Shown in pieces: positions 7,292 through 7,684 of a stretch of 32,000 nt of DNA. Each line of letters begins with the position of its first letter. Position 1 is the first letter of the stretch. The notes beneath the pieces are model-generated. The model saw nothing but the letters and a program-made list of their open reading frames with translations, was not told where the DNA came from and did not search any database. Both the position numbers and the translations under genes were made by a program. This DNA is from Mesoplasma florum L1 (GTDB lineage: Bacteria; Bacillota_I; Bacilli_A; Mycoplasmatales; Mycoplasmataceae): contig NC_006055.1 in NCBI RefSeq assembly GCF_000008305.1, forward strand, positions 510,001-542,000. The letters run 5' to 3'.

Positions 7292-7684
7292 TTAACCAAA
7301 ATACTTATTAAAAACCATATCTTTACCTATATTAGCATCTAAAGTTGTATTAATAGGTTGTGACATTTCTAAATTATTATTTTGATTGATTAAACTATTA
7401 TCAAATGATCTCATAGTTTCTAGTTTAACTATATTATCTGAAATATTACTATTAGCATTTAGCTTAACAGAAGTTGTATCATCAAATTCAAAACTAGAAT
7501 TACCTATTTTAAATTTTGCTTTATCATGCCCTTTAGCAGCTTCTATATAAGCAAATGGTAACATTGCTACATCAATAATAAAATCACCCGTTTTACCAAT
7601 AATAGAACCTATTCCATTTAACAACGCTCCTGAAGCAGCTCCACCTTTTATATCTTTTAATTCATCAACTTTTAGTTTTTGCAT
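7292..7684 (-). CDS. secreted-peptide precursor with canonical double-glycine (bacteriocin-type) leader
   Basis: MQKLKVDELKDIKGG|AASGALLNGIGSIIGKTGDFIIDVAMLPF…: leader positions -12 L, -8 E, -7 L, -4 I and -2/-1 GG all match the GG-leader consensus. RBS aaaagaggt. The stop is TAA. Confidence 0.7.
   Translation of the reverse strand: MQKLKVDELKDIKGGAASGALLNGIGSIIGKTGDFIIDVAMLPFAYIEAAKGHDKAKFKIGNSSFEFDDTTSVKLNANSNISDNIVKLETMRSFDNSLINQNNNLEMSQPINTTLDANIGKDMVFNKYFG

Follow-up and report, generated by a model that had tools for sequence, protein, structure and literature searches.

The gene mfl442 of Mesoplasma florum L1, which lies in the 32,000-nt stretch at positions 510,001 to 542,000 of contig NC_006055.1 (hereafter the window), was found to be a genuine gene, as evidenced by its ribosome-binding site (RBS), its TAA stop and its ratio of nonsynonymous to synonymous substitution (dN/dS). 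It belongs to a previously undescribed family passed on vertically within the Spiroplasma-Entomoplasma-Mycoides branch of the Mollicutes. The family starts with a leader of the double-glycine type, and a protein similar to the C39-peptidase ABC exporters (PCAT), Mfl264, is encoded elsewhere in the genome. Mfl442 may be a precursor that is processed by a C39 peptidase, with cleavage predicted after Gly15, and that has a role other than that of a bacteriocin; we hold this reading tentatively, at a little less than an even chance.

The mfl442 gene and its family

Window coordinates equal genome coordinates minus 510000, because published tables put mfl442 at genome 517292-517684. The window has 24.6% G+C and TGA is read as a sense codon; mfl442 contains no in-frame TGA, therefore the choice between genetic codes 4 and 11 is irrelevant here. 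The open reading frame (ORF), with its ATG at 7684-7682 and its TAA at 7294-7292, gave a product identical to AAT75801.1 (Q6F122), M. florum L1 mfl442, and an AGAGG RBS was located 5 nt 5' of the ATG. Against three Mesoplasma orthologues, dN/dS (Nei-Gojobori) was 0.20-0.26 overall, 0.21-0.36 in the leader, 0-0.11 in residues 16-75 and 0.31-0.39 in the tail, so the strongest purifying selection falls directly after the putative cleavage site.

Close orthologues (129-130 aa) were present in M. florum strains, M. tabanidae, M. chauliocola, M. coleopterae, M. entomophilum and M. melaleucae, and further ones on two read-assembly contigs. When 1.84 billion representative proteins were searched with a profile, seven small family proteins were added (a repetitive 677-aa protein was discarded as a false friend), and a second indexed search added three. 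Cluster look-ups traced these to Entomoplasma ellychniae and Mesoplasma corruscae (P0020), Mycoplasma capricolum including subsp. capripneumoniae (P0022), Spiroplasma endosymbionts of beetles and a robber fly (P0027), M. lactucae and Mesoplasma sp. JKS002658.

The same plan is found in every member. The leader follows the pattern M-x-K-[LI]-x7-[IV]-x-[GA]-G and has 15 aa, or 21 aa in P0020, where the E. ellychniae protein carries six extra residues (MKGGDI) in front. It is followed by a segment rich in small residues, x-S-G-[AS]-[LF]-[LF]-x-G-[IL], then by the motif H-D-K-x-x-[FY]-K-x-G-…-D-[DN], and finally by a variable acidic tail which closes on an aromatic residue. Codons 16-75 are near-invariant across the M. 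florum group, and the maximum 19-residue hydropathy of this core is 1.2-1.7, under that of a typical transmembrane helix. The tails vary in length and sequence, giving total lengths of 94-158 aa, and the net charge past the first 45 mature residues ranges from -1 to -11.

The family gene was directly 5' of the L21 leader RNA and rplU-prp-rpmA in nine of the ten loci examined. Outside the M. florum group it lies 30-50 nt after rsmI or overlaps it, which makes co-transcription with rsmI probable in most lineages; the AGGAGG site of the M. capricolum gene is strong. Insertions of variable DNA separate rsmI from the family gene in the M. florum group, among them a frameshifted pseudogene resembling nucleotidyltransferases, a gene for a repeat-rich surface protein and, in M. 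coleopterae, a transposase. The sole locus where the family gene does not adjoin rplU is that of E. ellychniae (L017 5001-5414), with four genes in between (a phosphatase, a metallo-beta-lactamase fold protein, an amino-acid permease and one without assigned function). Synteny across genera indicates an old, vertically inherited gene, unlike a mobile bacteriocin cassette.

The double-glycine-type leader

The M. florum leader MQKLKVDELKDIKGG carries Leu at -12, Glu at -8, Leu at -7, Ile at -4 and Gly at -2 and -1, with a remainder of 115 aa; on reading the sequence, these residues were exactly as the preliminary description of this ORF had given them. Its length and GG end are those of double-glycine precursors, whose leaders have about 15-30 aa and close on GG, GA or GS; in most of the family the closing pair is GG or AG. 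Ile-4, Leu-7 and Leu-12 occupy the three positions where such leaders are hydrophobic. The leader type proposed from the single sequence was retained in a family diverged to about 30% identity: Ile or Val at -4, Leu or Ile at -12 and Gly at -1 were kept in relatives of 27-47% identity, and a GG or AG end was present everywhere but in one subclade.

A position-specific scoring matrix (PSSM) from 20 textbook double-glycine leaders, a knowledge-based control, was applied to 436 ORF N-termini, taken from the window together with related loci and covering about 190 kb. The M. florum leader scored 12.4 bits; unrelated ORFs gave 7.0 bits at most, with 1.4 in second place, and nearly all top ranks were taken by family members, with the M. 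capricolum member highest (18.7 bits). Known leaders scored 8.5-33.5 bits in leave-one-out runs.

Pfam and NCBIfam scans with whole Mfl442 and with N-terminal fragments gave nothing significant. The first 20 residues of a distant member, P0025, reached 15.8 bits with TIGR01847, the model named 'bacteriocin-type signal sequence', when scanned alone (trusted cut-off 15.7) and 11-15 bits in longer contexts; this leader also matched the EntF, Chryseobacterium-leader and CLI_3235 leader models. AlphaFold2 (AF2) placed a helix at residues 7-14 of Mfl442 and a hairpin at residues 55-68, both with low confidence. Sequence and profile searches of the PDB with Mfl442 returned chance matches only, such as the His-tag region of EutL.

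Compared with the precursors of class II bacteriocins and pheromones (ComC, lactococcin G, lactacin F LafX and colicin V), Mfl442 shares a 15-residue hydrophilic leader, hydrophobic residues at -4, -7 and -12, the GG, a Gly/Ala-rich hydrophobic segment straight after the leader and the presence of a C39 protein in the genome. It differs in its 115-aa remainder with the acidic tail, in being encoded by a core, syntenic and vertically inherited gene instead of an accessory cluster, in having no linked transporter or immunity gene, in the loss of GG from one subclade and in a M. florum leader that stays under the reporting threshold of TIGR01847.

The C39 protein Mfl264

The genome, which the preliminary description had advised scanning for a C39 protein, encodes one, Mfl264, whose catalytic residues are intact. 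The gene lies at 302391-304217, and published tables give its domains as 'Peptidase_C39_like; SunT'. The RAST start at 302454, an internal ATG used in the tables of Matteau et al., drops the first 21 residues of the RefSeq product and so omits the catalytic Cys of the C39 domain. In orthologues and in RefSeq the start is a TTG 21 codons further upstream, preceded by a GAGGTGA RBS, which gives MK(L/I)VKQTSYQDCGVAC….

The C39 domain (PF03412) of Mfl264 and its orthologues was matched with E values from 8e-25 to 4e-28. Its catalytic set Q9/C15/H94/D110 is intact and, like the motifs QTSYQDCG, LLHFV and FDPS, invariant in five species. An alignment to residues 16-376 of PCAT1 (4RY2) spans the C39 domain and the membrane domain. 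Mfl264 thus shares with PCAT1 of Clostridium thermocellum and with streptococcal ComA an N-terminal C39 domain bearing Gln/Cys/His/Asp and a membrane domain of the ABC-exporter type. It differs from them in a nucleotide-binding domain (NBD) that is vestigial, stably so across Mesoplasma, and in a gene that is not beside any substrate gene. For the unlinked exporter imagined earlier there is a candidate in this C39 PCAT-like protein, which has a degenerate ATPase domain.

A word-indexed protein search for further C39 genes reached M. florum-group species only, a genome scan with too narrow patterns found that of M. grammopterae only, and a metagenome scan found none. The 32-kb window itself encodes no C39 domain protein. 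The small ORFs and large FtsX-domain genes beside the C39 gene were considered as a second substrate and rejected, as none has a leader-like start in the M. grammopterae locus (L006).

In that locus the GAGGTGA makes up the 3' strand of a 15-bp hairpin (L006 5975-6010; -20.4 kcal/mol, z -7.2) that is followed by U7 and then by the TTG start. The same arrangement occurs just upstream of position 3001 in L010 and L011, so that the RBS-covering hairpin is kept in three species. It is an apparent terminator of the preceding DJ-1 gene; it would halt transcription and mask the mfl264 RBS, consistent with the approximately zero RNA-seq reads of mfl264 in published L1 tables. The gene was reported as core and non-essential, with a homologue scored present in JCVI-syn3.0 (Baby et al. 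2018).

Upstream element and expression of mfl442

A 38-nt element directly upstream of mfl442 is kept in M. chauliocola, M. coleopterae, M. melaleucae and the contig of P0008, while the surrounding AT-rich DNA diverges. It can fold as an A/U hairpin (-12 kcal/mol, z -3.4). A search of this element for a sigma-70-type promoter was negative, and the M. genitalium sigma-20-type box (TTGTCA-N18/19-ATTWAT) was not found upstream of mfl442 or the C39 gene. A shared TTGTAAT upstream of the C39 gene belongs to the coding sequence of the gene before it.

In published data, mfl442 is core in 13 M. florum strains, tolerates transposon insertion and was scored without a homologue in JCVI-syn3.0 (Baby et al. 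2018). It lies within a 1.2-kb stretch outside any transcription unit and has no mapped transcription start site (TSS) (Matteau et al. 2020). Raw RNA-seq counts in six replicates were 0, 4213, 0, 0, 3 and 10 (Matteau et al. Dataset EV5); the replicate with 4213 reads was left uninterpreted because dnaA, mfl004 and other genes are similarly erratic in the same table.

Resemblance to RrlA/MPN313

The MPN313 family model NF045747 gave weak, N-terminally anchored matches to three members of the mfl442 family (E 0.001-1.3). The best reached 19-20 bits over model positions 1-52 of 87, against a cut-off of 100 bits, and M. florum Mfl442 had no match. With mutated queries the match was lost on changing GG to AA, on changing Leu4 and Val12 to Ala and on replacing the leader, and 17 of 19 bits were kept when residues 16-47 were scrambled. 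The resemblance is thus one of leader and composition, without homology of the mature part. The first 15 positions of the model reward Leu4, Ile/Val12 and Gly14-Gly15, as judged by this indirect probing of the hidden Markov model, and the RrlA family itself probably begins with a double-glycine-type leader.

MPN313 of M. pneumoniae is homologous to M. genitalium MG_220 (RrlA), a small protein needed for sigma-20 activity; the sigma-20 regulon includes RrlA and the C39 transporter MG_390 and is on in less than 1% of cultured cells (PMC4446450, PMC6105099). The word 'bacteriocin' is absent from Torres-Puig 2015, and 'glycine' and 'leader' from Torres-Puig 2018. Like the mfl442 family, RrlA is a small Mollicutes protein (about 100 aa), and the model of its family rewards leader features common to both, L4, I/V12 and GG at 14-15. 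RrlA is co-regulated with a C39 transporter and silent in most cultured cells, as mfl442 is in culture. They differ in that no positional similarity extends past the leader, in that RrlA stands beside mraZ and mfl442 beside rplU, in that RrlA belongs to the Pneumoniae group clade, and in a family score of 19 bits against the cut-off of 100.

Proposed processing and alternative explanations

In the mechanism proposed here, the first 15 residues of Mfl442 would form a PCAT-type leader, an amphipathic helix with L-12, L-7, I-4 and the GG end, which could be bound by the cytoplasmic C39 domain of the unlinked Mfl264 and cut after Gly14-Gly15. Cleavage would free a 115-aa product that consists of a conserved module of about 60 aa (the small-residue-rich hydrophobic segment and an HDKAxFKxG…DD hairpin) and the fast-evolving acidic tail. 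This product might either cross the membrane domain of Mfl264 or remain associated with it. With its NBD degenerate, Mfl264 alone is unlikely to drive export with ATP, and cleavage or membrane delivery, not secretion, may be the purpose. The conservation pattern suggests a role that is cell-intrinsic or in signalling and is off in rich-medium culture. That Mfl264 recognises and cuts the leader, and what then becomes of the product and what it does, are predictions from sequence. A parallel in favour is that mfl442 and mfl264 are both core, non-essential and covered by about zero RNA-seq reads.

Several findings weigh against this mechanism. The two genes are unlinked, 215 kb apart, and no common promoter motif was found in their upstream regions. 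Mfl442 protein was undetected in published L1 proteomics. Position -7 is polar in distant family members, not hydrophobic. In the model search suggested in the preliminary description, TIGR01847 and the other curated leader models left the M. florum leader unreported, and the leader of P0025, scanned by itself, came just over the cut-off of TIGR01847. Orthologues that keep neither the leader positions nor the GG would, by that description, refute it, and they do so in part: most members have GG or AG, and in three orthologues GG is replaced by GK (P0006), EV (P0007, M. melaleucae) and GR (P0008). These three group together, all start with MQKIK… and still have residues 16-75 about 90% conserved, which means that in this subclade the function survives without a canonical cleavage site.

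On the side of Mfl264, PF00005 (ABC ATPase) gave no match, and only a 50-residue remnant at the C-terminus aligns to the NBD of PCAT1. Walker A has become LGNVNKTK followed by a deletion, the signature ETNSQ and Walker B VILIKND; the H-loop is missing, and these motifs are degenerate in all five species. Judged by its sequence, the NBD cannot hydrolyse ATP on its own. The protein evolves about twice as fast as its neighbours, with 51% identity between M. grammopterae and M. chauliocola where the neighbours have 75-92%. JCVI-syn3.0 keeps a homologue of Mfl264 and was scored without one of mfl442, so the C39 protein there must have another role or substrate. The AF2 model from a 15-sequence alignment was unusable (pLDDT 40, pTM 0.17).

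Many of these points would also be explained if the N-terminus of Mfl442 were an amphipathic helix that is never cleaved, convergent with or vestigial of a leader, on an intracellular or membrane-peripheral protein in which the 16-75 module does the work and to which Mfl264 is unrelated. We regard this as unlikely, though it is a serious contender: the remainder stays intact in the three orthologues that lost GG, the M. florum sequence is unmatched by curated leader models, the position between rsmI and rplU with probable rsmI co-transcription resembles that of a housekeeping gene, the candidate C39 partner is unlinked, ATPase-dead and fast-evolving, and syn3.0 retains the C39 gene without the mfl442 family. 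What an uncleaved helix would leave unexplained is that M-x-K-L…I/V-x-G/A-G is kept at a fixed distance from the start at about 30% identity while the tail has fully diverged, and that the family leaders score as genuine ones do. Class II precursors have a hydrophilic leader followed by a Gly/Ala-rich hydrophobic stretch, and the hydrophilic 15-residue N-terminus of Mfl442 with its Gly/Ala-rich hydrophobic continuation has this usual layout. Another alternative, a spurious or decaying ORF with GG by chance, would suit the near absence of reads in five of six replicates, the missing TSS, the undetected protein and the non-essential gene; it is effectively refuted by the intact orthologues of five or more named genera or groups, a dN/dS of 0.2 and the conserved RBS.

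Two further explanations keep the C39 processing and change the product. Mfl442 could be the precursor of an autocrine signal or regulator, like ComC with ComAB or RrlA with MG_390, that feeds a rarely activated switch for recombination or gene transfer. The NF045747 matches to three members, which need GG at 14-15 and hydrophobic residues at 4 and 12, the shared sigma-20 regulon of RrlA and MG_390 (PMC4446450, PMC6105099) and the silence of mfl442 and mfl264 in M. florum cultures point this way. It is rather improbable all the same, with similarity to the MPN313 model limited to leader and composition, Mfl442 of M. florum itself unmatched, no sigma-20-like promoter upstream of either gene and, in published M. 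genitalium work, sigma-20 activation unaffected by deletion of MG_390. The toxin reading of the preliminary description, a classical class II bacteriocin with an unlinked transporter, did not hold up and is now very improbable. The Gly/Ala/Ile-rich stretch with GxxxG-like spacing after the leader and the C39 protein of the genome would fit it; the gene, however, belongs to the core of all 13 M. florum strains, its synteny and vertical inheritance extend across genera, its candidate active region is under strong purifying selection, and the mature part is long (115 aa) and net acidic with its acidic tail, whereas class II bacteriocins are small (usually under 10 kDa), cationic and membrane-active. 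No immunity gene stands next to mfl442, no bacteriocin family of Pfam or NCBIfam was matched, and the candidate exporter lacks a working ATPase.

Orphan C39 proteins of mycoplasmas

Gene 0401 of JCVI-syn3A resembles the C39 transporter of sublancin, no double-glycine peptide candidate was known in syn3A or other mycoplasmas (citing the genome screen of Dirix et al. 2004), and the metabolic model of syn3A gave 0401 a speculative lipoate role (Breuer et al., PMC6609329). The searchable literature contained no report of double-glycine peptides in Mollicutes, and together with PMC6609329 it bears out the earlier statement that such peptides are not established there. In recent transcriptome preprints on syn1.0 and syn3A, neither a gene between rsmI and rplU nor 0401 was found to be mentioned. 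Mfl264 poses the same substrate question as MMSYN1_0401 and other orphan mycoplasma C39 proteins, and a homologue of it was scored in syn3.0; a difference is that syn3.0 was scored without an mfl442 homologue, the nearest family member being that of M. capricolum.

The mycoplasma C39 family (syn3A 0401, MG_390) has been without a known substrate since the 2004 screen, and the mfl442 family is a concrete candidate. It comes from the same branch of the tree, M. capricolum included, and makes the orphan-C39 question directly testable. If C39 processing of Mfl442 is true, two 'unknown' genes of near-minimal genomes would gain a function, and it would be evident that a PCAT can survive as a protease and membrane module with a dead ATPase. 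If it is refuted, the mfl442 family would be a well-conserved gene next to the L21 operon with function unassigned. A wider idea is that the mfl442 and RrlA/MPN313 families are the missing substrates of Mfl264, MMSYN1_0401 and MG_390, forming a reduced descendant of the Firmicute module of the ComC/ComAB type, in which leader cleavage would gate a rare programme (such as sigma-20-type recombination and horizontal gene transfer) instead of serving ATP-driven bacteriocin secretion; we offer it as speculation, with the chances well against it.

Genomic context

The coordinates of the features are collected in Table 1. The ORFs of the window agree with the earlier observation that neither a C39/ABC exporter nor a small hydrophobic immunity-like gene flanks mfl442. 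Of the two neighbours that had been named, the rplU operon was correct, whereas the 'nucleotidyltransferase' gene is a frameshifted pseudogene.

Table 1. Features of the mfl442 locus and the M. grammopterae orthologue of mfl264 (window coordinates unless a locus is named)
Feature	Position	Strand	Basis
mfl442 coding sequence, 130 aa + TAA stop	7292..7684	-	ORF calls, identity to AAT75801.1, orthologues, dN/dS
Double-glycine-type leader, codons 1-15, MQKLKVDELKDIKGG; predicted C39 cleavage after Gly15	7640..7684	-	Sequence, PSSM
Conserved core, codons 16-75: Gly/Ala/Ser-rich moderately hydrophobic segment AASGALLNGIGSIIGKTGDFIIDVAMLPFAYIEAA, then HDKAKFKIGNSSFEFDD motif	7460..7639	-	Alignment, dN/dS
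Variable polar, acidic tail, codons 76-130, conserved aromatic at end (…NKYFG)	7295..7459	-	Family comparison
Conserved 38-nt upstream element TTTTGTAATAACAATATGAAGTTAGAAAAGAGGTAATT, including AGAGG RBS at 7690-7694	7685..7722	-	Alignment
L21 leader RNA, between mfl442 and rplU operon	7135..7214	-	Rfam RF00559, 41.5 bits (gathering score 36)
rplU	6829-7128	-	ORF; conserved neighbour downstream of family gene
prp/ysxB	6512-6826	-	ORF; conserved neighbour downstream of family gene
rpmA	6223-6510	-	ORF; conserved neighbour downstream of family gene
mfl443 + peg.445, frameshifted remnant of ~213-aa gene	7750..8388	-	Frame analysis
M. grammopterae orthologue of mfl264	L006 6001-7827		C39 catalytic set, membrane domain

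The L21 leader RNA was also present in M. capricolum, M. melaleucae, M. lactucae and one Spiroplasma symbiont. In M. florum L1, rplU-prp-rpmA forms transcription unit TU_246 with its own TSS at genome 517219/517220, that is window 7219/7220 (Matteau et al. 2020).

The remnant on the other side of mfl442 shows the GS…DxD signature of nucleotidyltransferases, with a sub-threshold match to Pfam Pol-beta (E 0.09); peg.445, an ORF of 48 aa, is the second piece of the frameshifted mfl443 gene, and M. chauliocola has a 193-aa gene at this place. The region was reported as non-core in M. florum (Baby et al. 2018) and has about zero RNA-seq reads in L1 (Matteau et al. tables). This pseudogene is outside the mfl442 system and sits between mfl442 and its ancestral upstream neighbour rsmI.

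Further along the window, lipoprotein-like ORFs of 200, 255, 290, 530, 673 and 907 aa, which start with MKKLL… and have a Cys about 20-25 residues in, occupy 14857-17580 and 23193-31943 (minus strand), and a pair of ABC ATPase and permease genes lies at 21528-23089. None of these carries a C39 domain or a double-glycine leader. The gene mfl444 (8513-12943, minus strand) encodes 1476 aa with a signal-like hydrophobic segment at the N-terminus and contains at least 10 near-identical tandem repeats of 261 bp (87 aa). Its RAST label 'chitinase' has no support from any Pfam family; in published data it is non-core, highly expressed and seen by proteomics.

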